The notes below the pieces were generated by a model. The model did no database searches. It saw only the letters and a program-made list of their open reading frames with translations, and was not told where the DNA came from. Shown in pieces: positions 39,959 to 61,975 of a stretch of DNA of 64,000 nucleotides. This stretch comes from Candidatus Micrarchaeota archaeon. Lineage in GTDB: Archaea > Micrarchaeota > Micrarchaeia > Micrarchaeales > CABMGC01. The number at the start of each line of letters is the position of its first letter. The stretch's first letter is position 1. The position numbers and the translations under genes are program-made. The DNA lies in contig JAJZYR010000001.1 in assembly GCA_021797995.1 (NCBI GenBank), forward strand, positions 6,114-70,113, written 5' to 3'.

Positions 39959-40734
39959 AGGAATTTCCTGCCAGGATACTCTTTTGCAGCAGCATACATG
40001 CCGTCTAGTTCTTTAAATCCGCCATCCTGCTCTAATCGGTTTCCTACGTGTATGGCATCGGCTCCGGCTGCAAATAATGCTTTGGCATTGGCTACCGTAT
40101 TAATTCCGCTGGTGGGGATTACAAAGAGTTGCGTATGTTCCGCAAGCCTTTCTATATGCGATGTTGGAGGCGGACTGGCGCTGCCTGACCCGCCAGCCAT
40201 GACATAGAATCTTATGCCCAGGAACTGGGCCGCTTTGGCTACGGCAAGACTGAGTTCTGGCTTGTCCTTTGGTATGGGATTGCTCCTAGTAATCCAATTC
40301 GCCGTGCCTACTGAGCCCCTATCGTCAAACACATATACAGTGGGGAGAGCCTCCAATTCATTCTTCTCCATCTGCATCGAATTTGAGATAAGACCGTCCC
40401 AGTTGTAAAGCGTATTGAGGGCGTTTGGCACCTGCATCCAGTACGCGGCTGTTCTTCCGGCCTTCCCTTTTATGGCATTTATATTTGCAGTCAGATACAG
40501 CAGGACCAGGAAATCGTAGTCATTTACCGCCATATCCAGCAATCTCTGTGTATTAACAGCGTCTATGGTGCTGCCGCCCACTGCAATTAGCTTTATTCCT
40601 ATGTCTTTAACCTGCCTGAACCATTTGTTGCCTTGCTCTACCGTATTCTTATCGGGATCCAATTGCGGTATAACAAGAGGGTGCTCCTCCCTCAACTCGT
40701 ATATCACCTTCTCTACTTTACCTATCTGGAGCAT
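39955..40734 (-). CDS. Geranylgeranylglyceryl-phosphate synthase / PcrB-family prenyltransferase (divergent)
   Basis: VIPQLDPDK, LIAVGGS, EALPTVYVFDDRGSVGTANW...IPKDKPELSLAVAKAAQFLGIRFYVMAGGSGS and AAGADAIHVGN match the GGGPS layout. The usual GGGI turn reads PTSGI. Confidence 0.7.
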   Translation of the reverse strand: MLQIGKVEKVIYELREEHPLVIPQLDPDKNTVEQGNKWFRQVKDIGIKLIAVGGSTIDAVNTQRLLDMAVNDYDFLVLLYLTANINAIKGKAGRTAAYWMQVPNALNTLYNWDGLISNSMQMEKNELEALPTVYVFDDRGSVGTANWITRSNPIPKDKPELSLAVAKAAQFLGIRFYVMAGGSGSASPPPTSHIERLAEHTQLFVIPTSGINTVANAKALFAAGADAIHVGNRLEQDGGFKELDGMYAAAKEYPGRKFL

Positions 40735-42872: not shown

Positions 42873-45800
42873 TCATGACCTGCACAGGGGCGATGCTGTC
42901 ATCCACTTGCAGTTCGTCGCCACAGGCCCTAGGCATGCATTTCCGCCTGTATCAAGGTTGCCGCTGCTTACATTGACAGAGCCTCCGGAACACAGTATCC
43001 CTTCCTTTGAAAATCCTGAAAACCTGTTGTTTCCTATAATGGCCTGGTCTGCGCCTATCATGTACATCCCCACCGCCCCCCCGGTAGCGTTAGTCATGTT
43101 AACCGCCATGTTCGAACCGCCGATTATCGAAAGGCTGACATTCACATCTGCAAAGGTATTGTTTCTTATACTGCCAAACGTGGAACCTTGCGCATATACC
43201 CCATATGATGCGTTCTCCACCCTGTTGTTTGCCACGGTTGCATACTTGGCGTTGGAGAGCGTTATGGAGGCATTGGCGCTACCCACTGTGTTATTTATGA
43301 TCTCTGTGTACGAGCCCCCAGATATTATGGGAGTCGTAAAGTTCTTTATGTAGCAGTTCTCGATCCTGACGTTGGAAGCGTTTATGTCCCTGACAAAGGT
43401 TCCGCCTTTGCTTGCAAAGATCGTATGTCCATTGCAGTTTATCACTGTGCCATTTGCCGAGCTCGTCGCAGTCACTGTTATGGTATTCGAGGTCCTGTTA
43501 AGAGTCCGGCCCTGGGTATTGTATACCGTGTAGCATGTCTGTCCGTAAGGATAGTATATATCGGAGGACATCGAGACAAGGGTGGTGCCGCTTATCGCCA
43601 TGCACTGCGACTGCAACTGCACCGGCGGTATCTCGACGAGCCATCTGCAGTCGACCTTGCTGACTCCGTTGTTTACGCCGCCCTGCTGCGCATACAGGCC
43701 TGAGGAGTCGGCAGAGCAGTAATAATCTCCCTTTGCGTTGTCCGAAGCCGTGTTGTTCGAGATCCTGTTATTTATGGAATTGACAAACGAGAAGCCATGG
43801 CCTCCGCTTCCTATCGCATTGTTTGACAGTATGGCATCCCCGCTCGAATTGTTGAATGAATAGCCTACCTTCCCATCAACCGTGGCATTGACTGACGTTC
43901 CGGTTACCGTTGAGTTGTCGAGGCTGTTAAAAGCGAAGCCCGCGGCAACAGGATCAAGCACCCTTATTCCTGAGAATTTTGCGTAAATAGCGTTGTAGAT
44001 AGACAGGCCTGTGGCCGACGCATTGACGTTTATACCGTTTATACTTAGATATGCCGTATTGGTAAAGTTCATGCCTAAGCCGAAATTCTGTATGTTGCAT
44101 CCGCTGATAGTGTCGTTTGACACCCCGTCGCCCATGAATGCGCTTCCGCTTCCCGTATTTATAATCAGATAGTTGTTGCAGCTGAAGTCTACATTGTTAG
44201 CCGCTATCACAAAGCAGTTGCCTCCCTGCTTGTTCACGTTGCCGGTAAGCGAGTAGTTGCCAGGTTTCAAGATCGTTTCGCATGAGGTTACCGGAAGGAC
44301 GCTGAGGGGCGGAGGGGCCCTGACGCTGCATGCGGCCCAGCCGCAATCGCTGACGCCGCAGGTGTTGCCCGAGAAGAGGTTTGACTGCGCTTTGTAGGTG
44401 CCCACATTGCAGTAAAGGTCCTGGTTTGCATTGTTTTCAAGCCGGTCCTGCCTGTAGATATTCGAACCGCCGCTTGACGAGTATATTCCATATGTATTAT
44501 TGCTTACTGACAGGCTGCTGAACGTCATTCCAGTTGTCGCATTTATGTATATCCCGTATTTGCTTCCGGTCAGCACCGAATTGGATATCGCCCCTGTGGT
44601 CACATTGTTCAGCAGGATGCCCGTTACAGAACCAGAGAGCGTAATGCCTGTTACATTGAACTGGAAGACCCTTGCCGCGTTTATCCCTATCGTGTCATTC
44701 GAGAGGACGCAGTCAGACACGGTGATATTGTATAATCCAGAGGATTCCGGCGGGATGTTTATCCCGTATCCGGAATTACGTATCGAATTGCCATGGCAGT
44801 CCAGCTTCACGTCAGGAGCCGCAATGTTTATGCATGCTGCAGTTTTGGATGACGGAGCCGAGAGATTCAGGTAATCGCCAAGATTCAGGTTCTCCTGCAC
44901 CGCATACGTTCCGGGGGAGGTTATAGAACCGCACTGGCTTACCTGCTTCGAGAGCGTCACGGTGCTTATGTTTGTCGGTATATTGACATTCGAGCATTGC
45001 GCAAAGTTGCAGAACCTGTTTATGCTGCACTTCGAACTGGTGAAGTTGTTTGACGAGCGGAAGCCGGCACTGCCTGAGCAGACAAGGTCCACTGGATTGC
45101 CAATGAAGCTGTCCCCGGAAAACCTGTTCCCGGTAGAATTGACCACTACGCCATAGAATGCGTTGCCCTGGATATTGTCCTTCAGGATCCTGTCAGAGCC
45201 CCCTCCCTGCAGCGAGATGCCGCCCAGATTGCTTGCAATCCCGGAGATGTTGTCTCCGGCGATTAAGTTGTTTGCCGATGAGCTCAGGTAAATGCCTGAG
45301 ACCGTGCCGTTCATTGCGCTGCTGTTTGTCACAGAGGACTCGGTAGACCTGTTAAAGTAGATATCGAAAGAGAACTTTGAGACGTCAACTCCGGTCACGG
45401 TCACATTAGTGACCCCGTCAAGCCTTATCCCATAGGTATATGGGGGGGTAAGCACGTACGGACCGCTGCCATCGATCTTGTTGCCGTTCCCGACAAGCCT
45501 TACGTCGCTGCTCTTTATGTCTATGCAAGAGCCGTTGGAGATGCCGGTGTTTATGGTGCCTGTGATGAAGTATGTGCCGGGAGAGGTTATCACAGCACAC
45601 GAGGATATCTTGAAGACCTGCGTGGCAGGCACTGTGGTGGTTGCCACAGGCCCCGGATGGCCCTTGTTCAAGAATGCAAGGTAATAAGCTGCGATGGCTA
45701 TTGCTATGACTGCAACGGCAACCGCAATAAGCTTAACCTTCCTTCTCGACCTTATCTTGCTGTCTATATTTTCGATTATCTCTGGGTTGCCCGCGGATTC

Positions 45801-45956
45801 AGGCTGTGGGGCACTTATTATCCGAGGCGCCTGCTGCGGCTGGGCCGGGCTTGCAGGCGGCACCGGAGGCACCTCGACCGGCTGGGGGTTCCCTGGGGCT
45901 GCTGGGGTTCCTTCAGGCACCTGTGCCGATACCTTATAATTTTCGTACTTAGTCAT
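42873..45956 (-). CDS. Large membrane-anchored surface protein with four right-handed beta-helix (NosD/PbH1-like) modules
   Basis: It has an N-terminal Pro-rich segment and a TM helix (LIAVAVAVIAIAIAAYYLAF). Four modules each open with C-x-x-I-x-x-PG-x-Y ... C-I-x-I ... (SCAVITSPGTY, QCGSITSPGTY, SCETILKPGNY, QCMAISGTT) followed by ~22-residue N/G/S-rich repeats. N-x-S/T sequons are dense. Confidence 0.7.
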   Translation of the reverse strand: MTKYENYKVSAQVPEGTPAAPGNPQPVEVPPVPPASPAQPQQAPRIISAPQPESAGNPEIIENIDSKIRSRRKVKLIAVAVAVIAIAIAAYYLAFLNKGHPGPVATTTVPATQVFKISSCAVITSPGTYFITGTINTGISNGSCIDIKSSDVRLVGNGNKIDGSGPYVLTPPYTYGIRLDGVTNVTVTGVDVSKFSFDIYFNRSTESSVTNSSAMNGTVSGIYLSSSANNLIAGDNISGIASNLGGISLQGGGSDRILKDNIQGNAFYGVVVNSTGNRFSGDSFIGNPVDLVCSGSAGFRSSNNFTSSKCSINRFCNFAQCSNVNIPTNISTVTLSKQVSQCGSITSPGTYAVQENLNLGDYLNLSAPSSKTAACINIAAPDVKLDCHGNSIRNSGYGINIPPESSGLYNITVSDCVLSNDTIGINAARVFQFNVTGITLSGSVTGILLNNVTTGAISNSVLTGSKYGIYINATTGMTFSSLSVSNNTYGIYSSSGGSNIYRQDRLENNANQDLYCNVGTYKAQSNLFSGNTCGVSDCGWAACSVRAPPPLSVLPVTSCETILKPGNYSLTGNVNKQGGNCFVIAANNVDFSCNNYLIINTGSGSAFMGDGVSNDTISGCNIQNFGLGMNFTNTAYLSINGINVNASATGLSIYNAIYAKFSGIRVLDPVAAGFAFNSLDNSTVTGTSVNATVDGKVGYSFNNSSGDAILSNNAIGSGGHGFSFVNSINNRISNNTASDNAKGDYYCSADSSGLYAQQGGVNNGVSKVDCRWLVEIPPVQLQSQCMAISGTTLVSMSSDIYYPYGQTCYTVYNTQGRTLNRTSNTITVTATSSANGTVINCNGHTIFASKGGTFVRDINASNVRIENCYIKNFTTPIISGGSYTEIINNTVGSANASITLSNAKYATVANNRVENASYGVYAQGSTFGSIRNNTFADVNVSLSIIGGSNMAVNMTNATGGAVGMYMIGADQAIIGNNRFSGFSKEGILCSGGSVNVSSGNLDTGGNACLGPVATNCKWMTASPLCRS

Positions 45957-46440: not shown

Positions 46441-46512
46441 GCCTCTGTAGCTCAGTGGTAGAGCGACTGCTTCGTAAGCAGTAAGTCGAGGGTTCGATCC
46501 CCTTCAGAGGCT
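46441..46512 (+). tRNA. tRNA-Thr (anticodon CGU)
   Basis: Hand-folded cloverleaf: acceptor gcctctg/cagaggc, D arm gctc-agtggta-gagc, anticodon arm actgc-ttCGTaa-gcagt, T arm gaggg-ttcgatc-ccctt. No CCA is encoded. Confidence 0.9.
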
Positions 46513-49210: not shown

Positions 49211-49516
49211 TTACGCCTGCATGCTCATTCTCACTTCCTCAGTTATGCATTCAGGAGTCCATGCAGGCTCCCACACTAGGTCTATGTTAACCTGGCCCGC
49301 ACCCTGAAGGTGCTCCAATCTGAGCTGAATGTCTGCAAGTATAACGCTTGTGACAGGGCACATTGGGCTCGTCATCGTAATCTTTAGGCTTATGTTGTTG
49401 CTTGCATCTATATTTATGCCATAGATGAGACCAAGATCGACTATGTTTATGCCTATCTCCGGATCAACACAGCCCTTCAAGGCTGTGATTATATCGTTTA
49501 TCGTAAGTCTTTGCAT
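49211..49516 (-). CDS. DUF59/MIP18-family Fe-S assembly protein (SufT-like)
   Basis: VDPEIGINIVDLGLIYGI ... ITMTSPMCPV is the hallmark DUF59 pattern. Confidence 0.8.
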   Translation of the reverse strand: MQRLTINDIITALKGCVDPEIGINIVDLGLIYGINIDASNNISLKITMTSPMCPVTSVILADIQLRLEHLQGAGQVNIDLVWEPAWTPECITEEVRMSMQA

Positions 49517-49807: not shown

Positions 49808-51211
49808 CTATGCTATCCTGAAGAGATACGAAGAGGCATTGCCCACTACATGGATTAGTGGCTGGGGATACATGCCTATTGCTATTGTGATTACCAGGCA
49901 TGTGACAACGACAAGAACTGTTCCCGTATTCATCCTCATGCGCGCTGAGCCTGCCTTTTGGGCGTATGCCGCCATTATCGGCCTTGCGTAGTAGTACACC
50001 GAGATTATGCTGTTCATCACGCCGAGCACTGCAAGCCACACCAGCCCCGAGTTCACGGCCCCTAGGAAGAGCAGGAACTTGCCCACGAAGCCGGTGGTGA
50101 ACGGCAGCCCTACGAGAGAGAGCATGAAGATGGTCATGCAGAACGCCGCCACCCTGTTCTCACCGTTAAGGCCTATGATGTCATTTATCTCGGTGCGGTT
50201 CTTCGACTCCAGCCATGCGACTATTGCAAGGAGCCCTATGAATAGGAACATGTGCGCGAATATCTGGAAGAGGGCGGCGGAGATGCCTGCCGATGACGAC
50301 GATGCGATCCCTATCAGGATATATCCGGCCTGTGAGATGGACGAATACGCGAGCATGCGCTTTATGTTCCTTTGCATTATGGCGGCTATGTTTCCGTAGA
50401 ACATAGTTGCGACTGACAGTATTGCTATGATTAGGAATGCGGACCTGAATGCGATGAATACCATGATGAGAACCTGCATAAGCGCGATGAACCCGACTTT
50501 CTTGTTTATGCCGCCGAGCATTGCCGTAGCGTATGCAGGCGAGCCCTCGTACACGTCCGGCATAAGCACATTGAACGGGAATACCGATGCTTCTATCCCA
50601 AGCGATGCTATGAACAGCACCATGGCAAAGGCCAGTATGCCGGATTCCTGGTAAACTGGCTGCAGGCTGAGCGAATTGGTCCCCCCATAGAGGGCCACTA
50701 TGGCGAACGAGAGGACACCGACCGAGATTGAGCCGATGATGAATAGCTTTGTCGCGGCCTCAAGGCTCTTTCTCGAGAGCAGCACTATGAATACGGTAGG
50801 TATCACCATAAGCTCAAGGCCCAGAAAGAGCGTTATGAGGGTAACTGAGAGCGACACGAGGTACATGCCCATGAGCGCAAACGACGCCATGAGCGCAAAG
50901 TCACCAAACCCTCCGGCGTATTCGTATGCGAGCACGCTTACCAGTAGCATCGAGAAGGTGAGTATCAGAATGAAGAAGGTCGAGAAGGGGTTTACTGAGA
51001 GCACGCCGAGCACAGTCTGCTGTGTGTTTGCGTATGCCATCGCTCCTGCCGTAATCGTAAGGAGGAGCAGAATGGCTGCGTTGCAGGCGAATTGCGCCCG
51101 CCTCCTGTTTGCAGCCCTTAGCACGAGGTTTACGAGGACAAGCGCACCTGCAAGCAGGAGGAAGAGGTGCACAGGCGTTGCAAAAGCTGCTATCTGCGAT
51201 ACATCTATCAT
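49808..51211 (-). CDS. nuoN: NADH-quinone oxidoreductase subunit N (antiporter-like)
   Basis: It is polytopic, with LGLELMVIPT and KRMLAYSSISQAGYILIG as NuoN-type motifs. It is the last gene of the nuo cluster. Confidence 0.8.
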   Translation of the reverse strand: MIDVSQIAAFATPVHLFLLLAGALVLVNLVLRAANRRRAQFACNAAILLLLTITAGAMAYANTQQTVLGVLSVNPFSTFFILILTFSMLLVSVLAYEYAGGFGDFALMASFALMGMYLVSLSVTLITLFLGLELMVIPTVFIVLLSRKSLEAATKLFIIGSISVGVLSFAIVALYGGTNSLSLQPVYQESGILAFAMVLFIASLGIEASVFPFNVLMPDVYEGSPAYATAMLGGINKKVGFIALMQVLIMVFIAFRSAFLIIAILSVATMFYGNIAAIMQRNIKRMLAYSSISQAGYILIGIASSSSAGISAALFQIFAHMFLFIGLLAIVAWLESKNRTEINDIIGLNGENRVAAFCMTIFMLSLVGLPFTTGFVGKFLLFLGAVNSGLVWLAVLGVMNSIISVYYYARPIMAAYAQKAGSARMRMNTGTVLVVVTCLVITIAIGMYPQPLIHVVGNASSYLFRIA

Positions 51212-53001
51212 TATATCACCAGGAGCGCATACGCAAGGAGGAGGATTGCACTCACCGCGAAGATGAATGCATATGGATTGATGGCTCCTACTGACATCCT
51301 CCTGAGCCGCGATGCGGAGAGTACGAGGAGATGGCCGAGATAATCGAACATGCCGTTAAGATAGCTCTCGAAAAGCGCGACTCCTTCCCCAAGGTCATAG
51401 AGAAAGCTCGCGGAGAGTATATACAGAAGCGCGAATGCGCCGCGGCGGTGTGCTGCCGCCAATGAAACAGACTTTCCCTGAGCCGGAGCCCTGCTTCTCC
51501 GCTTATATGCCAGATAGCTGGCTGCGGCGCCCACGAGCGCGAGAGCCATTACGATTATACCATCCTGCAAGCTTATTGATATCGGCATGCCTGACGCCAG
51601 GTAGGCCGACCAGCCGTACCCGCCTGCCAGGAAACTATTGAGAAAGACGACAAAGACTGACGCAAAAGCCGTAAGGCATGCAAGGATTACTATCGGGAAG
51701 AGCATGCTCCTTGGCTGGCCCAGGTACCTGAGCGCAGTGGCTTCGGCGCCTGCGGGCTTTGACACAAGGAGAAACCACCTGAAGATATAGAAGCTCGTTG
51801 CGAGCCCTATCAGCGAGATTATCACATAAATGACAAGATTCTGGGAGAACGCGCCGCCTGTCGACGCTGCTGCAAAGAAACCGGAAAGCGGAAAGAAGCC
51901 CGCGAGGGAGAGCACGCCGATGAGGGTGGAAACATAAAGTACCTTGTTTATACCCAGGCCGGAGGTCCTGTCGAGGCCCTCTTCGTCCGTGGCCTTCATT
52001 ATCGAACCTGCGCTGAAGAAGAGCAGGGCCTTGTATAGGCTCTGGACAAGGAAGAAGTATATTGCGGCGAAGAGCGCGCCTCCGCTCACGGCAACCAGCA
52101 TGAGCGAGAGCTCCTGGATGGTTGAGTATGCGATCACGCGCTTGACATGACGCGACCTCATTGCACTGACCGTCGAGATTGCCGCGGTCACCACTGCAAA
52201 GGCCATTATGACCGGGGTTACGCCAGCCCTGTATAGGAGGGGATAGAGGATTATCGCAAGGAACACGCCGGCCTTTACCATTGTCGTAGAGTGCAGGAAT
52301 GCCGATACCGGGGTCGGACCCTCCATCGCGTCTGGCAGCCACTCCTGGAATGGAAACTGGGCTGACTTGGTCAGCACCGCGACTACCAGGAGCAGGGCGC
52401 CCAGATACAGCTGCGGCGACGCATGCGACGGTAGCGCTGCAAGTATGCCGGAAAAGCCAAGGGTCCCGAAGAGGTTCAGGAAGACCGCGATGGCCGCCAG
52501 GAGGGCTATGTCCCCCATTAGCACAATGGTTACCGCAAGGCGCGACGACCTGACCGCCCTCTCCCTGCCGTGCCAGAAACCTATCAGGAGATAGCTGGTG
52601 AGGCTCATGAACTCCCATGATATGAAGAGAAGGACGAAATTGCCACTCATGGCAAAGGCGCACATGGAGATCTCGAACGCAAGCATCTCTGCGTAGAACC
52701 TCCTCTGCTCGCTGAGCGTGGACATGAATCCTGATGAGTATACCATTACCAGCGAGCCGATGAACAGGACCGTACCGAGCAGGGCGAGGTTGAGCGGTGC
52801 TATGGTAGTGGTTATGTTAAATGCAAAGCTGCCTGCAGTAAACCACGGGATTGTTACCGTCCCATAAGAGACAAAATACAGGAGGGCAAAGCTTGCAATG
52901 CTGCCCCCTACTGCAACATACCTGAGCCCCATGCTGTTCCTCGAGAGGAGCACGGCTGCAAGGGAGAGCGCCATGGGGATTAGGAGCAGCAATGGAAACA
53001 T
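51211..53001 (-). CDS. nuoL: NADH-quinone oxidoreductase subunit L (antiporter-like)
   Basis: ISWEFMSLTSYLLIGFW, HSTTMVKAGVFL and RVIAYSTIQELSLM are NuoL-type motifs. The protein is 596 aa. Confidence 0.8.
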   Translation of the reverse strand: MFPLLLLIPMALSLAAVLLSRNSMGLRYVAVGGSIASFALLYFVSYGTVTIPWFTAGSFAFNITTTIAPLNLALLGTVLFIGSLVMVYSSGFMSTLSEQRRFYAEMLAFEISMCAFAMSGNFVLLFISWEFMSLTSYLLIGFWHGRERAVRSSRLAVTIVLMGDIALLAAIAVFLNLFGTLGFSGILAALPSHASPQLYLGALLLVVAVLTKSAQFPFQEWLPDAMEGPTPVSAFLHSTTMVKAGVFLAIILYPLLYRAGVTPVIMAFAVVTAAISTVSAMRSRHVKRVIAYSTIQELSLMLVAVSGGALFAAIYFFLVQSLYKALLFFSAGSIMKATDEEGLDRTSGLGINKVLYVSTLIGVLSLAGFFPLSGFFAAASTGGAFSQNLVIYVIISLIGLATSFYIFRWFLLVSKPAGAEATALRYLGQPRSMLFPIVILACLTAFASVFVVFLNSFLAGGYGWSAYLASGMPISISLQDGIIVMALALVGAAASYLAYKRRSRAPAQGKSVSLAAAHRRGAFALLYILSASFLYDLGEGVALFESYLNGMFDYLGHLLVLSASRLRRMSVGAINPYAFIFAVSAILLLAYALLVI

Positions 53002-53002
53002 G

Positions 53003-53311
53003 TCACCACTTCATCCTGGACAGCCTTGCAACGTCAAAGTCTATTCTCCTGGACTTCATGTATACATAGAAGGTTACCAGCGTGATTATCTCCGCCGCCG
53101 CCACCGCCCAGATGCTTATGAGCATTACTATTGCGCCCTGGTTCGGCACTGCGCCATAGGAAAAGAACGACACCAGCGCTATCGCGCTTGCCACAAACAT
53201 GAGCTCTATTCCAAGCATTATCACGATGAAGTGCCTATCGGTGGCGAGCCCTGCGAATGCAATGCCGACAAGCACGACAGCGACGGCAAACAGATAGATC
53301 AGTTCCAGCAT
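53003..53311 (-). CDS. nuoK: NADH-quinone oxidoreductase subunit K
   Basis: This 102-aa, 3-TM protein carries LGIELMFVASAIALV, the NuoK pattern with the conserved Glu. Confidence 0.85.
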   Translation of the reverse strand: MLELIYLFAVAVVLVGIAFAGLATDRHFIVIMLGIELMFVASAIALVSFFSYGAVPNQGAIVMLISIWAVAAAEIITLVTFYVYMKSRRIDFDVARLSRMKW

Positions 53312-53312
53312 G

Positions 53313-53792
53313 TCAGACCACCAATTTTATGAACTTCCTGATGAATAGCACGCTTCCCACCGCAGCCGCAGATAGAAGCAGCACAACCGCGAACAGGACA
53401 GGGTAGTACTCCTGAAATGCCGACGGGAAGGTCTGGGCCATGCTGCTTCCGGCATCAGGCACAGCAGCAACAGCCCTTGAGGTAAAGAAAAGCAGGGCCA
53501 GGGACAGCCCGACGGCAACTGGTATGAAGCTCGCCATGCTTATGTACGCCGACTTCTCCTCTGCAGCTATTGCGACCATGAGGTACGTCGAGAGGCCCCC
53601 TACAAATATGAAGAGCTGGAGGAGCGCGACGATTGGCTGGCCCAGAAGGAGGATGATAAGCGCGCTTCCGAGGAATACCGAGGTAAGGGCAAGCACCGCA
53701 TGCATCAGCCTCTTGAAGATGAAGATTGCAAGGGACGACGCTACCGTCACCGCGGCGAGCGATAAAAATGCAACTGTGTATATTCCGAACAT
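53313..53792 (-). CDS. nuoJ: NADH-quinone oxidoreductase subunit J
   Basis: The pattern HAVLALTSVFLGSALIILLLGQPIVALLQLFIFVGG is NuoJ-like, and the gene sits between nuoI and nuoK. Confidence 0.75.
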   Translation of the reverse strand: MFGIYTVAFLSLAAVTVASSLAIFIFKRLMHAVLALTSVFLGSALIILLLGQPIVALLQLFIFVGGLSTYLMVAIAAEEKSAYISMASFIPVAVGLSLALLFFTSRAVAAVPDAGSSMAQTFPSAFQEYYPVLFAVVLLLSAAAVGSVLFIRKFIKLVV

Positions 53793-53799
53793 GCAAAAA

Positions 53800-54159
53800 C
53801 TACTCCAGCTCCTCGGGTCTTTTCAGGAGCTCCCGCTTGTCGCGCACCTCGAGGGAATAATCCTTTGAAAGCGTAAGGCACTTTGGAGGGCAGACTTCGG
53901 CGCACAGCGCACAGAAGAGGCACCTCTCCAGTCCTACCTGGGGCATTAGCTTCATGCCGCGGTCGGTGGGTGTGTTTACCATCGTTATGGTCTTGTTCGG
54001 GCAGATACGCTCGCATGCGGAGCAGCTTATGCACGTTGGCATATCGAGCCGGAGCTTTCCCCTGTAGCAGTCCGGAAGCGATTCCTTCTCTTCGGGGAAT
54101 TCCAGCGTTGACCTCTTTTCCCCGAGCGCCTTTATCGACTGCATTATGGGTCTCAGCAT
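53800..54159 (-). CDS. nuoI: NADH-quinone oxidoreductase subunit I (2x[4Fe-4S] ferredoxin)
   Basis: Two CxxCxxCxxxCP motifs are present: CISCSACERICP and CLFCALCAEVCP. Confidence 0.85.
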   Translation of the reverse strand: MLRPIMQSIKALGEKRSTLEFPEEKESLPDCYRGKLRLDMPTCISCSACERICPNKTITMVNTPTDRGMKLMPQVGLERCLFCALCAEVCPPKCLTLSKDYSLEVRDKRELLKRPEELE

Positions 54160-54163
54160 CCGA

Positions 54164-55201
54164 TCACGCCACGAATATCATATAAGCCAGTATAAGGTTT
54201 ATTAATGAAAGGGGAAGAAGCCAGAGCCAGCCGAGGCGCAGCACCCTGTCTATCCTCATCCTTACCGTTGTTGCCCTTATCACGACAGTAAAGAGAGCTA
54301 TTACGAATGCCTTAAGTATGAGCCAGGCGACTCCAGGCAGGAATGGCGGACCGAGCCATCCGCCGAAGAACAGGAGAGATATCAGGAGGCCCCACAGGAA
54401 TATCCTGGTATAGTCGAGGAAGAGGGCCAGTGCATAGTAGGGCCCGCTGAAGTCAGTAAGCCATCCGGCTATGAGCTCTGAATCTGCTTCCCTCAGGTCG
54501 AATGGCGGCCTTTCCAGCTCAGCAAGCATGGCAATGAAGAAGACGACAAGGCCGATTGGCATTGCGATCGCAAAGTAGAAGAGCTTTGACTGTGCTGCCA
54601 CTATGCCGCTTATATTGTAGCCGCCGGAGAGGAGCGCTGCTGCCGCGATGACCACGATGAGCGGCAGCTCGTAGCTCAGGAGCATGAGCACAGACCTCTG
54701 GGCGCTTATGTCGGCAAACTTGTTGGAGCTCGAGAAGCCGGCGATGAACACAAGCAGCGGGAAGAATGAGATTGCCGTGAACAGCACGAGCAGGCCAAGG
54801 CCGAGGTTGGTCGCCTGGAGCGTGGGGGAGAACGGGACAAGGAGGATAAGGAAGGTGGTCATCCCGAGGAGGAGCACCGGTCCTAGCTTCATGAGCAGCC
54901 TGTCAGCCCTGTCTGGCTCCACATACTCCTTTGCAAGGAGCTTTACCAGGTCGGCGAGATTCTGGAATATCCCATATTTGCCGACATACGTAGGCCCGTG
55001 CCTGTGCTGCATCCTTGCAATGAGCTTCCTTTCCACCCATCCGAAAATATAGGCAAACACAGACGTGATTATCAGTACTGCGACTGCGTATGCTATTATC
55101 GCCGCGGCGTACGGAAGGAGGCCGCCTGAGCTCAACCAACCCTGCCAGACCGAGATAAGCCTGCTTATGGCCGGTAATGCCGTCATGTTACTATCCTGCA
55201 T
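54164..55201 (-). CDS. nuoH: NADH-quinone oxidoreductase subunit H
   Basis: WVERKLIARMQHRHGPTYVGKYGIFQNLADLVKLL and ELERPPFDLREADSELIAGW are the NuoH signatures. Confidence 0.9.
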   Translation of the reverse strand: MQDSNMTALPAISRLISVWQGWLSSGGLLPYAAAIIAYAVAVLIITSVFAYIFGWVERKLIARMQHRHGPTYVGKYGIFQNLADLVKLLAKEYVEPDRADRLLMKLGPVLLLGMTTFLILLVPFSPTLQATNLGLGLLVLFTAISFFPLLVFIAGFSSSNKFADISAQRSVLMLLSYELPLIVVIAAAALLSGGYNISGIVAAQSKLFYFAIAMPIGLVVFFIAMLAELERPPFDLREADSELIAGWLTDFSGPYYALALFLDYTRIFLWGLLISLLFFGGWLGPPFLPGVAWLILKAFVIALFTVVIRATTVRMRIDRVLRLGWLWLLPLSLINLILAYMIFVA

Positions 55202-55342
55202 CCCGCCAAGGCGGTAATCGCATCAATAAGTCTGCCGTATGGTCTTTGGGACCTGGAAGTGGAACCGTCTACGGCGGTCCGCCTCTCCTTGCCTGGATGT
55301 ATCCTGAACCTGTAGGCGCGCGCTGTCCCCATGCTCCCTGTT
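55183..55342 (-). pseudogene. tnpB (IS200/IS605-family) 5' remnant overlapping the nuoH start
   Basis: MGTARAYRFRIHPGKERRTAVDG... keeps the TnpB N-terminal AYRFRIxP motif and then degenerates. Confidence 0.5.
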
Positions 55343-55362
55343 TTGTTTTGCGTTTTTATATA

Positions 55363-55372
55363 CCTTTCCCGC
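55363..55372 (-). promoter_or_regulatory. TATA-box-like element of the IS remnant, oriented toward nuoH
   Basis: The minus strand reads tatataaaaa about 25-30 nt upstream of the remnant ATG (55342). The same geometry occurs at the other remnants: tataaa at 60307-60312 before ATG 60284, and tataaa at 63401-63406 before ATG 63380. Confidence 0.4.
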
Positions 55373-55470
55373 CCCGTGGGATTGGAGCCGTATGAAAATG
55401 AGTGTCGAAACAGGCCGCATGCGCCTGTAAGGTATTTATACCTTGAAAGCACAATGGCTCTATGTAGTGC

Positions 55471-55944
55471 ATGGACAACAAGACCATGATCAAAGGAATC
55501 ATCTTCGATTTCAATAGGACACTGTACGATCCCGACACAGGGCAACTTGTTGATGGCGCAACTACACTCCTTAAATCACTTCATGGAAAAGGCTATCTGC
55601 TCTGCCTGATAAGCAAGAAGTCCGTTGAGGGAAGGAAAGAGCAGATTACTTCGTTGGGCCTTGACAGATACTTCATAAAGATCCTAATAATAGAAGGAAA
55701 TAAGCTGGAGGCGCACTTCATGGAGTGCCTAAAGGCCATGGCATTGTCCGCTGCAGAAGTGGCTGTTGTAGGGGATAGAATAAACGAGGAAATATTACTG
55801 GGCAATAAGATTGGAATGCGCACCATATGGTATAAGTCCGGTAAATTCGCGGCCGAGGCACCCAAGGAGGCGGTCCAAGAACCGGATTATACGATAACGG
55901 ATCTGCAGAACGTTCCGACCTGTCTTGAAGAGAATGCAGGGTAA
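55471..55944 (+). CDS. HAD-superfamily hydrolase-like protein (motif I variant DFNRT)
   Basis: GIIFDFNRTLYDP, LCLISKKS and VVGDRINEEILLGNKIGMRTIW give a HAD layout. The second Asp of DxD is Asn. Confidence 0.6.
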   Translation: MDNKTMIKGIIFDFNRTLYDPDTGQLVDGATTLLKSLHGKGYLLCLISKKSVEGRKEQITSLGLDRYFIKILIIEGNKLEAHFMECLKAMALSAAEVAVVGDRINEEILLGNKIGMRTIWYKSGKFAAEAPKEAVQEPDYTITDLQNVPTCLEENAG

Positions 55945-55974
55945 AAAGGCTTTCGTAATCTCAAACGCCTTATC

Positions 55975-57303
55975 TCAGTCCCCAGCTCTAAGTGCCCATA
56001 CCCTTACTTCTGTCTTGCGGTCTTCAATGGCACCATCCCCTACCAGCTCTTCTACAACTACCGTACGTATATCCGAGGCGGCTATCTTCCCTATTGTCTT
56101 TTTCATTTCTAGTCTATGCCTCGGATTGTCTATTGAGTAGAAAAATGCAGTGGTTGCGCTCTTGCCTTTGGTTCCGGGCTTAAGAACTGCATCGCTCACG
56201 CCGTTTATGTGCATCCAGTCAAGCACGGTTGAGAACGCCATTTCTGTGCCATTGCCTATCTCAACCCGCAACATTTTGGGAACGCAGACCAGTCTCTCAA
56301 GGTCGGCTCTCAAGTCTATGTCGACTGTCTCTGTCACTGCTTGCTTCTGCATTAAAGGTATAAAACGCGGAGGGTCTATCATACGCAGGCCATCTACTTC
56401 TGCTTTGTTTAACCTTTCGACCTCTACTTGGCTAGCTGCTCTGAAGAATCTCAGCACAGGCGGGGCACTTGCATTATATGCACCGCTTTGCACCCTGTTC
56501 AGGAAATCGTCTTTTGTAAGCAATTCTGCATGAATTCCTGCGCCATTAAGCCTCTCTTTGATGCCTTCAAACTCGAAAGGCATCCCCTGCAGCATGCGAT
56601 CGTCTTGATACACGATCATTACACTGTTCCGGCTATCCACAAACCCTTTAGCCATATTGGCATACATGCCTGCAAAGTCGAGGCCCGTCCCTGCCAAGCC
56701 ATGCATCTGTGAACCAAGCACGAAGCCAAGATTGGACTCTCCAACATCAACCAGCCACCACTCATATAAACCATTTGACCTTTCTAGCACAAAGTCAGCT
56801 CTGATGCAGTACTTCGACCCGTCTGGATCCAAGTGCGTGGATATCAGTTCGGTGGCGGCTCTGAGCCTCTGGAAGGATACCTCATCTATCTTAAGCGAGT
56901 ACGTTGCCGGGACAGAAAACAGCATTGGACCTTCTTCGAAAGTAATTGACCCTGACCGGTTCATGACGTTGGAAGATATGCAATCGCCGGAAGCGGACCA
57001 TGGCGCCCACGATGTCTTTGCAGAGCCGCCAGCCCTGAGTATTGAGCTCTTGAGTATGCCATCGATGAACGTTACTTCACTGGCGGATTTTATGTCTCCC
57101 CTGTCCATAACCCGCAACGCGCTGCCACGTAACTGGACGCGCAGCGCAGATTCGAGATCCGAATGCTGCCTTGCGAATTCCAGCAGCTCCCCTCCCGTAT
57201 TAAGGCGCTTGAGGTCTTTCCAATAAGAGAAGGGCACATTCTGCACCTTGGCAAGACCGCCGCGCTGGACCATTAGTCTCTCCGTTGTGCATTTATCTAT
57301 CAA
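55975..57303 (-). CDS. Hypothetical protein with ATP-grasp-like motifs in GSP-synthetase/permuted order
   Basis: This is a 442-aa open frame overlapping the nuoD stop. The order of motifs is CIRADFVLERSNGLYEWWLVDVGESNLGF (Mg/ATP-site-like), then AVLKPGTKGKSATTAFF, then TVVVEELV..EDRKTEVRVWAL (ATP-grasp central motifs). The assignment is tentative. Confidence 0.3.
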   Translation of the reverse strand: MIDKCTTERLMVQRGGLAKVQNVPFSYWKDLKRLNTGGELLEFARQHSDLESALRVQLRGSALRVMDRGDIKSASEVTFIDGILKSSILRAGGSAKTSWAPWSASGDCISSNVMNRSGSITFEEGPMLFSVPATYSLKIDEVSFQRLRAATELISTHLDPDGSKYCIRADFVLERSNGLYEWWLVDVGESNLGFVLGSQMHGLAGTGLDFAGMYANMAKGFVDSRNSVMIVYQDDRMLQGMPFEFEGIKERLNGAGIHAELLTKDDFLNRVQSGAYNASAPPVLRFFRAASQVEVERLNKAEVDGLRMIDPPRFIPLMQKQAVTETVDIDLRADLERLVCVPKMLRVEIGNGTEMAFSTVLDWMHINGVSDAVLKPGTKGKSATTAFFYSIDNPRHRLEMKKTIGKIAASDIRTVVVEELVGDGAIEDRKTEVRVWALRAGD

Positions 57304-58393
57304 CGCAGGCCATCACCAGATCCAGCGAACCCATTATCGAGAAGAGGTCCGCGAACCGCTGCTCCTTTGCCATGTGCTCCAGTGCGAAGAGATTTATGAA
57401 GCATGGGGAGCGCACCGAGAGCCTGTACGGCCGCTGCGGATCGGCGATCATGTACATCATGCCCTCGCCACGGGGCAGCTCCCTGCTCACTGAAGCTATG
57501 CGATTCTTTGCTGCAGGCCCTATGAGCCTCACCTGGGCCCCCAATGCGTCTCCCTCAGGCATCCTCTTCAGAGCCCCGCGTATGAGCCTTATGCTTTCCT
57601 TTATCTCAAGTATCCTGACCTTGTACCTGGCAAGGTTGTCTCCGCCGCCCAGGACCTGGGAGTTGAAGTTGAGTTCACGGTAGGCGTAATATGGCCTTGC
57701 CTTCCTCACGTCGTAGTCAACGTTCGATGCCCTCAGGACCGGACCGGTGACGCCAAGCCCCTTTGCTTCCTCTGCAGTGAGTATCCCCACGCCTTTCATC
57801 CGCTCCATAAACACAGGATTTGACTCTAGGTATTTACCATACACCTCAAGCCTCTTTTCAATGTGGCCTAGGAGCGACTGGCAGTCTTCATCGAAGCCCG
57901 GAGGGAGATCGCGGGCAACGCCACCCAGCCTCATGTTTACATAGAACATGCGCTGGCCTGTGGCCTGCTCGAGAAGCGCAAGGACCCTGTCCCTGTCCTC
58001 GAACACCCACATGAACATGGTGAACATCTGGCCCATGTCGTTGCAGAGCGCGCCGATGAAGAATAGATGACTTGCTATTCGCTGGAGCTCCAATTCGATG
58101 ACTCTTATATACTGCGCCCTTTCCTTTACCTCTATGCCAAGCGCAGCCTCGACTGTTGCGACATATGCCTCGTCATATGCAAGCGGCGCGACATAGTCAA
58201 GCTTCTCCATGTAAGGCGGGCACTGCATGTACATGCGCGTCTCTACTAGCTTCTCCACCCCCCTGTGCAGGAACCCTACGTGCGCCTCGAGGTTCTTGAT
58301 TGTATCACCGTCAAGGTCAACGACAAGCCTGAGCACGCCATGGGTGCTCGGATGCACGGGCCCTATGTTGATTTTTGTCGTCGTCTTTGTCAC
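57293..58393 (-). CDS. nuoD: NADH-quinone oxidoreductase subunit D
   Basis: INIGPVHPSTHGVLRLVVDLDGD matches NuoD, and the C-terminus reads GSLDLVMACVDR. GTG 58393 overlaps the nuoC TGA (GTGA) and gives a family-typical N-terminus. The track ORF starts at 58459. Confidence 0.9.
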   Translation of the reverse strand: MTKTTTKINIGPVHPSTHGVLRLVVDLDGDTIKNLEAHVGFLHRGVEKLVETRMYMQCPPYMEKLDYVAPLAYDEAYVATVEAALGIEVKERAQYIRVIELELQRIASHLFFIGALCNDMGQMFTMFMWVFEDRDRVLALLEQATGQRMFYVNMRLGGVARDLPPGFDEDCQSLLGHIEKRLEVYGKYLESNPVFMERMKGVGILTAEEAKGLGVTGPVLRASNVDYDVRKARPYYAYRELNFNSQVLGGGDNLARYKVRILEIKESIRLIRGALKRMPEGDALGAQVRLIGPAAKNRIASVSRELPRGEGMMYMIADPQRPYRLSVRSPCFINLFALEHMAKEQRFADLFSIMGSLDLVMACVDR

Positions 58394-58767
58394 CCTTCGG
58401 CCTTGTACTCCGAGTTCCAGGCGAAGCTCTTCCTGAACGGCGGCTCCGTGCCGTCCCACTTCTCGAGCAGAAGCCTCCTGGCGGCCCTGCCCCTTATTTG
58501 TATCCCGAACATCTCTGAGAGCTCCCTTTCATACCAGTCCGCGCACGGAAAGATGTCTATTATGGTAGGCACCCATGCGTCCTTGCAGTCGAGGTCTGCT
58601 TCGATGATGTCGTCCCTGTTGCCGCCTATGTCCCTCAGAAAATAGATAACAGTAATGCTCTGCACATAGTCGATTGCGGTTATTTTCACCAGGTAATCGA
58701 AGCCGGATTTCCTCATTTCCTGCGCTTTCTGCGCTATGTCTTCCGCATTAACTTTCAATAGCTCCAC
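58390..58767 (-). CDS. nuoC: NADH-quinone oxidoreductase subunit C (short form)
   Basis: [29 protein letters not shown] is the NuoC signature. The protein is 125 aa. Confidence 0.85.
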
Positions 58768-59353
58768 CTATCTTCTCCTGCAGTTTGATCAGGGACGCGA
58801 ACAGGCTCTCTGGTCTGGGAGGGCATCCTGCAACGTATACGTCCACTGGCAGCACCTGATCTATTCCCTTCACGATATTGTAGCTCTCCCACCATGGACC
58901 ACCACATGTTGCGCACTCGCCGAATGCGATCACATGCCTCGGCTCGGCCATCTGCTCGTAGAGCCTTTTTATCTCAGGGACCATTGACTTTGTGACCCAG
59001 CCTGCGACAAGCATGACATCGCACTGCCGCGGCGTGGCCCTGAAGAGAAGATACCCCTTCCTCTCTGCGTCTATCCTTGCGGCGCCGAAGTCCATGAGCT
59101 CTATGGCACAGCAGGCGAGCCCGAACTGCAACGGCCATAGCGAGTTCTTCCTAGACCAGTTGACCGCACCCTTGGTCCCGGGAACCATCTTCAGGAGGTC
59201 CGATAGCCTTGCAAAAATCGCATTTGGCTTTATCTCCCTATAACTTATGGAGTCGGCAACCAGCTTGTCCATCTCCCGCTTTGCACTCAGGAACTCGCCG
59301 CTGCTTCTGTCTATCTGCTCTGTCATGGTCTTACACCTGCGCCTCCCTTGCAA
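58748..59353 (-). CDS. nuoB: NADH-quinone oxidoreductase subunit B
   Basis: The N2-cluster ligand patterns are present: [25 protein letters not shown] and AGCPPRPE. Confidence 0.9.
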
Positions 59354-59702
59354 ATATGATTATGAACATCTCGAATATAAAACCTGACACAAAAAGGCCA
59401 AGGATATAATAATTTGCAACGACTGGCAGCGCCCTTGCGGACAGGATCCACATGAGCATTATCGCCGCTATAACCTCAAATGACAGGAACATCGGAAAGT
59501 AGTGCAGGTACTCGTTCATCACGCTGGTGCGCCCACCTGAACTGCTCTCCGCACTCTCATAGCTGTTGTCCTTTACGGAATTAGGCCTGCTGCCCCTTCG
59601 TATGAACTTTGAGGTAAGGAGCATAAGGAGCGGTTCCATGACGGCAAATGCAGCAAGTATTATTATTGCGACGTATACGGAAACCATGATTGAAGATGCC
59701 AT
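59331..59702 (-). CDS. nuoA: NADH-quinone oxidoreductase subunit A
   Basis: It is a 123-aa, 3-TM protein and the first gene of the cluster. The loop NSYESAESS sits where the YECG motif is expected, and [11 protein letters not shown] follows. Confidence 0.7.
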
Positions 59703-59753: not shown

Positions 59754-59828
59754 GGGTCCGTAACTCAGTTTGGCTAGAGTGAGAGGCTTTTAACCTCCAA
59801 GTCGTGGGTTCAAATCCCACCGGGCCCG
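59754..59828 (+). tRNA. tRNA-Lys (anticodon UUU)
   Basis: Hand-folded cloverleaf: acceptor gggtccg/cgggccc (one G-U), D arm actc-agtttggcta-gagt, anticodon arm agagg-ctTTTaa-cctcc (one A-C mismatch at 27-43), T arm gtggg-ttcaaat-cccac. Confidence 0.85.
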
Positions 59829-59925
59829 CCTATTCTTACCCTTCAGCGGGGCAGGGTTCAAATCCGAATTTCAAGCATGTGCAAGAAGCGCAGGAAGCGG
59901 CGCGGTCCGTGCGCGCCATGGCAAG

Positions 59926-60284
59926 TCATTCCTGTCCGTGCGCCTTGAGCGCGGCCCTGGCGATGTCCCTGACCCTCTTCCCTGCCCTCCTCTCCCTCAC
60001 CCTCCTGAAGAAGTTCTGGTACGCCCTCTGCAGCCTTACGAATACGTTCTGGAGGGCCTGCGAGTATATCCTGTTGAGTTCCCCATTCTCACCCCTATCT
60101 CTTTCATGAACCTGTTGAATGTGGACTTTGTTATCTGCAGGTTCCTGCCCTTCAGGTACTCCTCCTTCGCCATCCCAAGGAGTTTGTTGTAGAGGAATCG
60201 CGCGAGTTCTATCTGTTCGTCTATCTCCCTCTGCCTCTTGGCGTCGGGATAGATCCTGAACCTGTACGCCCGCACAGATTCCAT
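59926..60284 (-). pseudogene. tnpB (IS200/IS605-family) 5' portion, frameshifted and truncated
   Basis: Frame 1 reads MESVRAYRFRIYPDAKRQREIDEQIELARFLYNKLL. After a frameshift the homology continues in a second frame (IYSQALQNVFVRLQRAYQNFFRRVRERRAGKRV). Only about 120 of the ~400 aa expected remain. Confidence 0.65.
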
Positions 60285-60514
60285 GACATTTATTATATTG
60301 TAAGTGTTTATACGCCTTCACTTCATCCCGCGATTGAAATCGTGGGTTTTCAGCTCAGATGAATCATTATAATAGCAGCAGAGGTGCTGACCGCTCTTGC
60401 GGCATACCTCTCACTGAGGGGCAGGGCTGGAGGGATTGGGGATCCACATGAACTGGATATATATACGTTATCCGGTCAAGACTCTCTGAACCAGACCAGC
60501 AAACTAGTGGCAGC

Positions 60515-61975
60515 ATGACGGATGAGTTCAGACTTGAGAAGCTGAAGAAGCTGAGGGATCTCGGCATAAATCCTTACCCCTACTCTTACAGAGTCACCCA
60601 CAAGGCGAGGGACGTGGTTTCCATGTTCGCGTCGCTTGAGGGCAAGGCCGTGAGCATAGCAGGCAGAATGGTGAAGAGGAGGGAGATGGGGAAGCTCTTC
60701 TTCATAGACCTGCTCGATGACAGCGGCAAGGTGCAGGTAATGGTGACAGAGGGCTCTGCCGGGAAGGGCTTGATGGATGTGGTGAGGCTCACCGATGTCG
60801 GGGACATAATAGGGGTGAGGGGCACGGTGACGAAGAGCATGAGAGGGGAGGTGACTGTGGATGCGAAAGAGGTGACGATACTCGCCAAGTCCCTCGCGAC
60901 GCTCCCGGAGAAGTACCACGGGCTCACCGACATCGAGGCGAGATACAGGAAGAGGCATTTGGACCTGATCATGAATCCGAATGTGAGGAGTTTCTTCGTC
61001 ACGCGCGCCGCAATACTCAAGTACCTCAGGGATGCGCTTGATTCCTTAGGGTATATCGAGTTTGAGACGCCGGTGCTCCAGCCTGCATACGGAGGAGCCA
61101 ACGCAAAGCCTTTCCTTACCGAGTACAATGCGCTCGACGCTAAGGTCTTCCTCAGGATATCGGATGAGCTATACCTCAAGAGGCTGGTAATCGGAGGATT
61201 CGAGAAGGTCTACGAGGTCTCCAAGGACTTCAGGAACGAGGACATAGACTCTACGCACAACCCTGAGTTCACGCAGATAGAGTTCTATGAAGCTTACAGG
61301 GATTACGAGGACTTCATGAAGCTAACTGAGAAAATGATGTCTGGGCTCGTGAAGAAGCTCTTTGGCAGCCACAAGATAGGGTATCAGGGCAGGGAGCTCG
61401 ATTTCACTCCGCCGTTTGCGAGGGTGCACTGGGTTGAGGAGCTAAAGAAGAGGGCCGGAATAGACATAACGGAGATGGGCGACGACGAGGCCGCCGAGAT
61501 CGCAAGTAGGGAAAAGCTTGGGATAGGGATAAAGAACGCATATCACGTGGCTGACGGTCTGTTCGACAAGTACGTAAAGCCGGAGCTCTGGAACCCTGCC
61601 TTCGTAGTCGATTATCCATCGTACATGTGCCCGCTCACCAAGGATAAACGCGGAAACCCTAAGCTAAGCGAGAGGTTCGAGTTCTTCATAGCCGGTAGGG
61701 AGCTGGGTAATTGCTATTCAGAGCTCACCGACCCGGTCGAACAGAGGGAGAAGTTCGAGCGGCAGGATGCGGAGAGGGGAAAGGGCGATTACGAGGCGCC
61801 TCCGAGTGACGCTGATTTCCTTGAAGCGATGGAATACGGCATGCCGCCGACCGCCGGGATGGGCATTGCGATAGACAGGCTGGCGATGATACTCACAGAC
61901 AACATATCCATCAAGGAAGTGATGCCGTTTCCTGCCGTCAGACCAGATAGGAAAGCTGAACGCGAGAAGGAGTAG
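60515..61975 (+). CDS. lysS: Lysyl-tRNA synthetase, class II
   Basis: An N-terminal OB region is followed by motif 2 (FRNEDIDSTHNPEFTQIEFYEAYRDYED) and ELGNCYSELTDP. The C-terminal part reads GDYEAPPSDADFLEAMEYGMPPTAGMGIAIDRLAMIL (motif 3). Confidence 0.95.
   Translation: MTDEFRLEKLKKLRDLGINPYPYSYRVTHKARDVVSMFASLEGKAVSIAGRMVKRREMGKLFFIDLLDDSGKVQVMVTEGSAGKGLMDVVRLTDVGDIIGVRGTVTKSMRGEVTVDAKEVTILAKSLATLPEKYHGLTDIEARYRKRHLDLIMNPNVRSFFVTRAAILKYLRDALDSLGYIEFETPVLQPAYGGANAKPFLTEYNALDAKVFLRISDELYLKRLVIGGFEKVYEVSKDFRNEDIDSTHNPEFTQIEFYEAYRDYEDFMKLTEKMMSGLVKKLFGSHKIGYQGRELDFTPPFARVHWVEELKKRAGIDITEMGDDEAAEIASREKLGIGIKNAYHVADGLFDKYVKPELWNPAFVVDYPSYMCPLTKDKRGNPKLSERFEFFIAGRELGNCYSELTDPVEQREKFERQDAERGKGDYEAPPSDADFLEAMEYGMPPTAGMGIAIDRLAMILTDNISIKEVMPFPAVRPDRKAEREKE

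Follow-up and report, generated by a model that had tools for sequence, protein, structure and literature searches.

A predicted circularly permuted ATP-grasp protein of an orphan archaeal family, encoded with a HAD-superfamily hydrolase in an insertion between nuoD and nuoH of a Micrarchaeota nuo operon

The described proteins closest to the one reported here are ligases with a circularly permuted ATP-grasp fold, of which the eukaryotic glutathione synthetase 2hgs is the classic case, its Mg-ligand half preceding its Lys/hinge half. A ligase resembling glutathionylspermidine synthetase (GspS), encoded by E. coli ygiC, shares an operon with tolC and has no effect on TolC (PMC11762307). Complex I of Micrarchaeota is encoded without nuoEFG, and ferredoxin is its presumed electron donor (PMC5864196). 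Here we examine a gene that lies between nuoD and nuoH in a Candidatus Micrarchaeota archaeon (assembly GCA_021797995.1, contig JAJZYR010000001.1, positions 6,114 to 70,113 of the forward strand); the 64,000 nucleotides (nt) of this stretch are called the window, and positions are counted from its first letter. An earlier note, made from the sequence of the window alone, had taken this open reading frame (ORF) for an amidoligase genetically tied to the respiratory complex. We consider it likely that the product is a permuted ATP-grasp carboxylate-amine ligase with a neighbouring HAD protein as its functional partner, and that its position among the nuo genes is that of a lineage-specific insertion.

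The uninterrupted frame on the minus strand spans 55975-57303 and closes with a TGA codon at 55977-55975. The earlier note placed an ATG at 57303; the triplet at 57303-57301 is TTG, and close to the start of the ORF an ATG occurs in frame just once, at 57273. This ATG, which the note had named as the alternative, sits 19 nt past the nuoD stop codon, a TAA read at 57295-57293. The note's length of 442 amino acids (aa) is obtained only from the TTG, while the public call of the identical protein, P0001, has 432 aa. The ATG at 57273, giving 432 aa, is most likely the true start; the TTG could nevertheless serve, since in the family alignment the N-termini of homologues reach 7-8 residues past that of the ATG version. 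The features concerned are:

55975-57273, minus strand: gene for a predicted permuted ATP-grasp-fold ligase, 432 aa, orphan family (ORF and translation, public call P0001, structure model, Foldseek)
57278-57283, minus strand: GGAGAG, a Shine-Dalgarno-like element read from the sequence, its GGAG core 6 nt upstream of ATG 57273
57301-57303, minus strand: alternative TTG start (442 aa) overlapping the 3' end of nuoD (sequence; comparison with the junction in the related locus L012)

When 1.84 billion cluster representatives were scanned exhaustively with HMMER, relatives of the ORF were found in 24 clusters (formed at 50% identity) at E<=1e-3; nine of these reached E<=1e-30, and the best stood at 1e-137. 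The named sources are metagenome-assembled genomes of Candidatus Micrarchaeota/Micrarchaeia, 'Marsarchaeota' (an NCBI label) and Woesearchaeota, and every relative is labelled 'hypothetical protein'. That label is all that speaks for a spurious frame with no gene behind it, a reading that is effectively refuted by the 24 clusters, by a ratio of nonsynonymous to synonymous substitution rates (dN/dS) of ~0.15 in the single pair where dS could be estimated, and by a confident fold prediction. That the ORF is a functional gene is shown by the conservation of its family and by this roughly estimated purifying selection.

At the level of sequence the family stands alone. The ORF protein had no match in Pfam, NCBIfam, PADLOC, PHROGs or PDB sequences, and a Pfam scan of 19 family members gave scattered chance matches and no meaningful one. 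A family profile searched against PDB sequences stayed at chance level; its best match, an FNR regulator (E 0.02 over 64 residues), was judged to be chance and rejected. A word-indexed profile search for further members found 4 proteins, a scan of metagenomes added only a duplicate of locus L007, and no description of the family was found in the literature. We therefore describe it as a small sequence-orphan family, so far found in DPANN archaea (Micrarchaeota, NCBI-labelled 'Marsarchaeota' and Woesearchaeota).

The fold was approached by structure prediction. A first AlphaFold2 (AF2) model, built on a 3-sequence alignment, was unusable (predicted local distance difference test, pLDDT, of 50) and was superseded by a model built on the 19-member family alignment, with a pLDDT of 91.3 and a predicted TM-score (pTM) of 0.90. 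Foldseek with this model against the PDB gave 49 matches at E<=1e-3, nearly all of them ATP-grasp ligases. The exceptions were three chains of the NisB dehydratase, which we disregarded because their alignments exceed the length of the query and their TM-score (TMt) is just 0.25. Human, yeast, plant and nematode glutathione/homoglutathione synthetases were matched at E 3e-10 to 1e-6 over 330-373 columns, the best match being a eukaryotic glutathione synthetase at E 3e-10 over 373 columns; E. coli YjfC, YgiC and GspS, and the uncharacterised 3k1t, followed at E ~1e-5 over ~360 columns, and classical D-Ala-D-Ala ligases at E 4e-5 to 5e-4 over ~210 columns. A structure search of the viral library BFVD returned only ATP-grasps of the Ddl and TTL types. 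A match of nearly full length to permuted members, and of half length to classical ones, is what a circularly permuted ATP-grasp would be expected to give. The predicted structure, together with the permuted order of the motifs described below, thus agrees with the domain call of the earlier note, which had been made from motif resemblance and for which a structure search had been proposed as a check. A circularly permuted ATP-grasp fold is well supported by this model, and its chemistry we infer to be that of a ligase.

Two conserved blocks carry the presumed active site:

56731-56802, minus strand: R158-N181 (RADF...LVDVGESN), presumed catalytic Arg and Mg2+-ligand block (alignment, YgiC parallel, model)
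56002-56346, minus strand: K310-R424, putative nucleotide-binding half (invariant residues in the 19 members; pairing with YgiC by hhalign, not significant)

The first block is N-terminal in this protein, whereas its equivalent in a classical ATP-grasp belongs to the C-terminal part; in the AF2 model residues 156-178 form a beta-hairpin. The second holds K310, P332, the V-L-K365-P motif, a loop at 367-376, the E408-E409 hinge and K420-x-E422-x-R424. Among the 19 members, which share 20-57% identity with the query, D160, D176, K310, P332, K365, K420 and E422 are invariant, G412 is nearly so, and E408-E409 is kept in most. The order of motifs is the permuted one, R-x-D...D-x-x-E-x-N and then K...V-x-K-P...EE hinge, and it matches that of E. 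coli YgiC (RLDL...LLENNADTP...VVKP...IVQQF), by analogy with which K310 and K365 may be assigned as phosphate-binding lysines and E408-E409 as the acidic hinge in contact with adenine. The three motifs that the earlier note had picked out, CIRADFVLERSNGLYEWWLVDVGESNLGF, AVLKPGTKGKSATT and VVVEELV...EDRKTEVRVWAL, were found in the order in which it gave them. Fold class and motif conservation, like the insertion and the recurrent HAD linkage treated below, we regard as established.

Comparison with the described enzymes places the protein beside them and in none of their families. The eukaryotic glutathione and homoglutathione synthetases (2hgs, 8fbz, 1m0w, 3kal) are its best structural matches (E 3e-10 to 1e-7, 340-373 columns) and are of similar size (~430-470 aa); identity is 11-14%, with TM-scores of 0.3-0.4 and a root-mean-square deviation (rmsd) of ~10 A. 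The ORF family had no match to Pfam GSH_synth_ATP or GSH_synthase, and phmmer and hmmsearch of PDB sequences found no glutathione synthetase with it. Unlike glutathione synthetase, it lacks a conserved Gly-rich GGG loop after the Lys of V-x-K-P, shows no gamma-glutamylcysteine ligase context and is paired with a HAD gene.

The C-domain of GspS, YgiC and YjfC (2io8, 7uk8, 7uk6) have the permuted fold in common with the ORF product (E ~1e-5, ~360 columns) and the same order of blocks, R-x-D...E/D-x-N-x-D...V-x-K-P...hinge; none of the 19 members matched Pfam GSP_synth at E<=10. In contrast to these proteins, the N-terminal 130 residues of the ORF product are unrelated and there is no amidase domain, and it ends ~35 residues sooner than YgiC after the last strand. 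Alignment by hhalign of the family with YgiC, or with YgiC, YjfC and Gss together, was not significant (probability <1%); the stretches aligned are topologically sensible, VLKPGTKGKS being paired with VVKPIFSREG of YgiC, and we take them as evidence neither way. The most balanced match is 3k1t, a 'putative gamma-glutamylcysteine synthetase' (TM 0.40/0.40, rmsd 7.5 A, 365 columns), which is itself uncharacterised and 11% identical; it is presumably a member of Pfam CP_ATPgrasp, a family to which the ORF family had no match. With the classical, non-permuted D-Ala-D-Ala ligase the predicted protein would have in common the nucleotide-binding half and presumably acyl-phosphate chemistry, and the permuted domain order limits the alignment to ~210 columns. 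As the ORF fails every sequence-model test for the glutathione synthetase and GspS families, it is filed, by these sequence models, as neither enzyme and as a new family within the known permuted ATP-grasp ligases.

The gene has a recurrent neighbour, which the earlier note did not report:

55471-55944, plus strand: capless HAD-superfamily hydrolase, 157 aa (Pfam HAD_2, Hydrolase_like and Hydrolase above cut-offs)

This HAD gene is convergent with the ORF, the two stop codons lying 30 nt apart. It fell under every NCBIfam cut-off (best sub-threshold matches TIGR02253 and YqeG-type IIIA), and its motif I reads D-F-N-R-T, in which Asn replaces the second Asp. An orthologous small HAD (144-157 aa) adjoins the ATP-grasp gene in 6 of 11 loci: convergent in the window and L001 (1645-2100), divergent in L002 (166-618), and co-directional with a 5-nt gap in the P0009 contig, L020/L021 (L020 7347-7784) and L022 (1349-1795). 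The HAD-linked loci cover three subgroups of the family, down to 28% identity to the query. In an alignment, motif I is kept as D-[FY]-N-R-T in five orthologues and a cap is absent throughout, which sets these proteins apart from the conventional HAD found downstream of nuo in locus L015. The retention of the HAD gene through three different gene orders argues for functional coupling of the two proteins.

Other neighbours differ among the loci. A TIM barrel of the BtpA family is encoded directly upstream in the P0009/P0010 subgroup; in L020 (5105-5926) and in the P0009 contig this BtpA gene (PF03437) precedes the ATP-grasp/HAD pair beside a two-subunit pyruvate:ferredoxin oxidoreductase cluster. 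In two Micrarchaeia loci, L007 (6866-7846) and L009 (1089-2089), the homologue is preceded by a distant SerK-like protein (48 bits against a cut-off of 380), SerK being an ADP-dependent serine kinase with a ParB fold; a DnaJ-type CxxCxGxG zinc-finger protein is a further neighbour in both, and in L009 the SerK-like gene is seemingly split into two ORFs. Immediately upstream of the homologue in L008 (6479-7811) lie genes for a pyruvoyl-dependent arginine decarboxylase and an SfLAP-family membrane protein, from which a polyamine or agmatine link is possible, at this one locus only. L005, the locus of a long-form member, has a cluster of radical-SAM, aspartate-dehydrogenase-like and methyltransferase genes as neighbours, and L023 has no recognisable ones. 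In L002 the next gene after the homologue is RibA-like; a link to riboflavin or F420 was considered from it and set aside, as this is a single locus. Homologues of BtpA, the SerK-like protein, arginine decarboxylase and RibA were sought in the window and none was found. The recurrence of phosphate-handling neighbours suggests, as a lead only, a phosphorylated substrate or product.

On this basis a route can be proposed. ATP would be held between the half with K310, K365 and E408 and the half with R158, D160 and D176-E179-N181; a substrate carboxylate would be activated by conversion to an acyl-phosphate, which an amine would then capture. The HAD partner would probably take phosphate off the substrate or the product, making a two-step 'ligate and dephosphorylate' route to a small molecule or modified peptide, and a phosphate-binding TIM barrel of the BtpA type would join the pair in one of the subgroups. 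The substrate class, like the role of the HAD protein, we infer as well.

Several findings weigh against this proposal. TM-scores of the Foldseek matches are modest (0.3-0.4) and their rmsd is large, and a sequence-level tie to any ATP-grasp family is absent, which leaves the fold call to the predicted structure. The canonical E-x-N Mg2+ pair is D176-V-G178 in this ORF. Catalysis may differ, since Asn at +2 of D176 is limited to the ~520-aa 'long-form' members (D-I-N-D); E179-x-N181, three residues on, may stand in for E-x-N. In the partner, Asn occupies the Asp+2 position of the general acid/base, which is atypical for a HAD phosphatase, and the HAD neighbour is missing in 5 of the 11 loci (L005, L007, L008, L009 and L023).

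The D-V-G at 176-178 in short-form members also bears on another interpretation, in which the protein has an ATP-grasp fold and is no ligase, being a kinase of the ITPK1 type or a degenerate binding protein; that no sequence family membership was detected would fit this, and a phosphatase-like partner would suit a kinase/phosphatase pair. Yet the best near-full-length structural matches are all amide-forming ligases, the alternative E179-x-N181 lies nearby, and the invariant K310, K365, D160 and D176 speak against degeneration, so that we find this interpretation quite improbable. Alternatively, the ligase could modify a protein or peptide, as do RimK, TTL and the peptide-spermidine ligases, with the HAD protein acting on the same macromolecule. 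The peptide-spermidine ligases YgiC and YjfC are among the structural matches, TTL-family proteins were matched in the viral library, and the partner HAD has no cap insertion; capless HAD members often act on macromolecules. Against this, the homologues examined have neither a candidate precursor peptide nor a target gene conserved beside them, and the BtpA, SerK-like and arginine decarboxylase neighbours point to small phosphorylated or amine metabolites, which makes a macromolecular target unlikely in our view. A carboxylate-amine ligase with a HAD partner thus remains the interpretation we prefer.

The surroundings of the gene in the window are as follows:

59331-59702, minus strand: nuoA (Pfam)
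58748-59353, minus strand: nuoB (Pfam)
58390-58767, minus strand: nuoC (Pfam)
57293-58402, minus strand: nuoD (Pfam Complex1_49kDa; homologues of 363-366 aa; tail alignment), its true start probably near 58393
55170-57292, approximate extent: two-gene insertion (ATP-grasp and HAD), ~2.1 kb (contiguity of nuoD and nuoH in relatives; GC)
55202-55470: spacer within the insertion, 269 bp (sequence)
55436-55441, plus strand: TTTATA, candidate archaeal TATA box ~30 nt before the HAD ATG (sequence), which could drive the HAD gene
~55353-55362, minus strand: TATATAAAAA, candidate archaeal TATA box upstream of nuoH (sequence), which could drive nuoH-N
54164-55201, minus strand: nuoH (Pfam NADHdh; N-terminus compared with L012, L014 and L015)
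53800-54159, minus strand: nuoI (Pfam)
53313-53792, minus strand: nuoJ (Pfam)
53003-53311, minus strand: nuoK (Pfam)
51211-53001, minus strand: nuoL (Pfam)
49808-51211, minus strand: one more antiporter-like nuo subunit (Pfam)
49211-49516: FeS_assembly_P, in the same synteny as in L012-L014
48491-49036: NDK, in the same synteny as in L012-L014
46660-48555: aIF5B, in the same synteny as in L012-L014

The nuoD region was compared with five loci, L012-L016, from three close relatives (nuoD identity 79, 76 and 71%). In all five, nuoH overlaps nuoD or begins 4-44 nt after it, in the order nuoA-B-C-D-H-I-J-K-L-(M/N), and FeS_assembly_P, NDK and aIF5B follow downstream in L012-L014; upstream, LysRS and SIMPL are common to the window, L013 and L014. 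The operon in the window and in L012-L016 comprises 10 genes, nuoA, B, C, D, H, I, J, K and L and one antiporter-like subunit; besides nuoEFG, one of nuoM and nuoN is absent from it (49808-59702 in the window).

The left junction is sharp: the window reads ...GCCTGCGTTGATAGATAA|ATGCAC where L012 reads ...GCCTGTGTTGATAGATAG|CATCGT, and similarity ends right past the nuoD stop. The C-terminus of nuoD (...LDLVMACVDR*) is intact, while the N-terminus of nuoH has been replaced (MQDSNMTALPAISRL...) relative to L012, L014 and L015. In L012, nuoH begins GTG TTG ATA GAT in the frame of the ORF (window 57293-57303 against L012 8060-8100). The insertion landed exactly on the nuoD/nuoH overlap, and the TTG at 57303 is what is left of the overlapping nuoH start of the ancestor. 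The insert is poorer in G and C (GC), at 45-50% over the greater part of its length, than the nuo genes on either side, at 53-58%, and the spacer at 55202-55470 has no similarity to the nuoD-nuoH junctions of the relatives. Because nuoD meets nuoH in the relatives, similarity breaks after the nuoD stop and GC is lower, the ligase and HAD pair is a lineage-specific insertion that split a formerly contiguous nuoABCD-HIJKL-N operon.

Transcription of the region can be outlined from its signals. The ORF is probably co-transcribed with nuoABCD in this genome, since it follows nuoD on the same strand after a gap of 19 nt, with a Shine-Dalgarno-like element before it. The nuoABCD-ORF transcript could end at a T5 run (55943-55947, minus strand), and the two TATA-like boxes could act as promoters of the genes beyond it.

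It might be argued from this arrangement that the product serves the complex I of this lineage, which lacks NuoEFG, as an accessory factor or in electron input or assembly/modification, and was recruited to act on it, the pair having been captured to place an amide-linked group on a Nuo subunit or to make a conjugate for electron input or assembly. The strand, the short distance to nuoD, the Shine-Dalgarno-like element and the overlap from the TTG start would favour this; the Micrarchaeota complex lacks nuoEFG, and ferredoxin is its presumed donor (PMC5864196); and two homologues neighbour BtpA, which is named after a role in biogenesis of a cyanobacterial membrane complex. However, of the 11 distinct homologue loci whose flanks could be read, the window alone shows nuo linkage, which recurs otherwise only in the two short contigs L003 and L004, which encode the identical protein; the ten other loci have no nuo neighbours. 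Recurrence had been set by the earlier note as a check, and its proposal of a genetic tie to the complex falls with this result. Its 'input-module slot' loses its meaning too, as in the closest relatives, which have the same operon, nuoD goes directly to nuoH and the slot is empty. The protein has no redox cofactor motifs: counted from ATG 57273 it contains three isolated Cys, with one more in the TTG extension, and it has neither a CxxC motif nor a Pfam domain, which bears out the note's statements that Cys motifs are lacking and that this is no E/F/G-type Fe-S subunit. Moreover, the HAD gene that came with it points the other way and breaks up the operon. For such hitch-hiking there is a precedent in ygiC, which also sits in the operon of a membrane protein, TolC, without serving it (PMC11762307). 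We conclude that the ORF product is not a subunit or input module of complex I and that it is a passenger among the nuo genes. Recruitment of the protein as a complex I factor is thus very improbable, and we give capture of the pair to act on the complex hardly any credence. That the family and its capless D-x-N HAD, with or without BtpA, form an undescribed DPANN-specific two-enzyme pathway, the family representing archaeal relatives of the permuted fold known from eukaryotic-type glutathione synthetase, is much more likely than such capture.

Further features of the window were recorded around the operon. A tRNA-Lys(UUU) gene (59754-59830) lies just upstream of nuoA, and the ~690 bp that separate it from the LysRS gene (59830-60515) hold short overlapping ORFs only; one of these (59926-60321, minus strand) has a by-eye likeness to the N-terminus of IS605 OrfB/TnpB (...YSQALQNVFVRLQRAYQNFFRR...) and no Pfam match. 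On the other side, a tRNA-Thr(CGU) gene (46441-46512) lies ~150 nt past the 3' end of the aIF5B gene. At 42873-45956 lies a gene for a 1027-aa protein, probably glycosylated and exposed at the cell surface; it has NosD/right-handed beta-helix repeats, a Pro-rich segment near the N-terminus, a transmembrane helix and a very large number of N-x-S/T sequons. The segment 40742-42528 encodes a KaiC-like ATPase fragment (212 aa) and then a 379-aa protein with no Pfam match, and beside it lies a PcrB/GGGP-synthase-family gene (39955-40734).

For the biology of these archaea, the gene between nuoD and nuoH is no substitute for the missing NuoEFG module of DPANN/Micrarchaeota complex I; the apparent oddity of a nuo-tied amidoligase is one lineage's insertion. 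Were the pair after all to act on complex I, a respiratory complex would have its first ATP-grasp accessory. The ligase and the capless D-x-N HAD provide a concrete two-gene module in a group of organisms with a poorly known metabolism, and the predicted fold adds a data point on the spread of the 'rare' glutathione-synthetase-type permutation beyond eukaryotes and bacteria.

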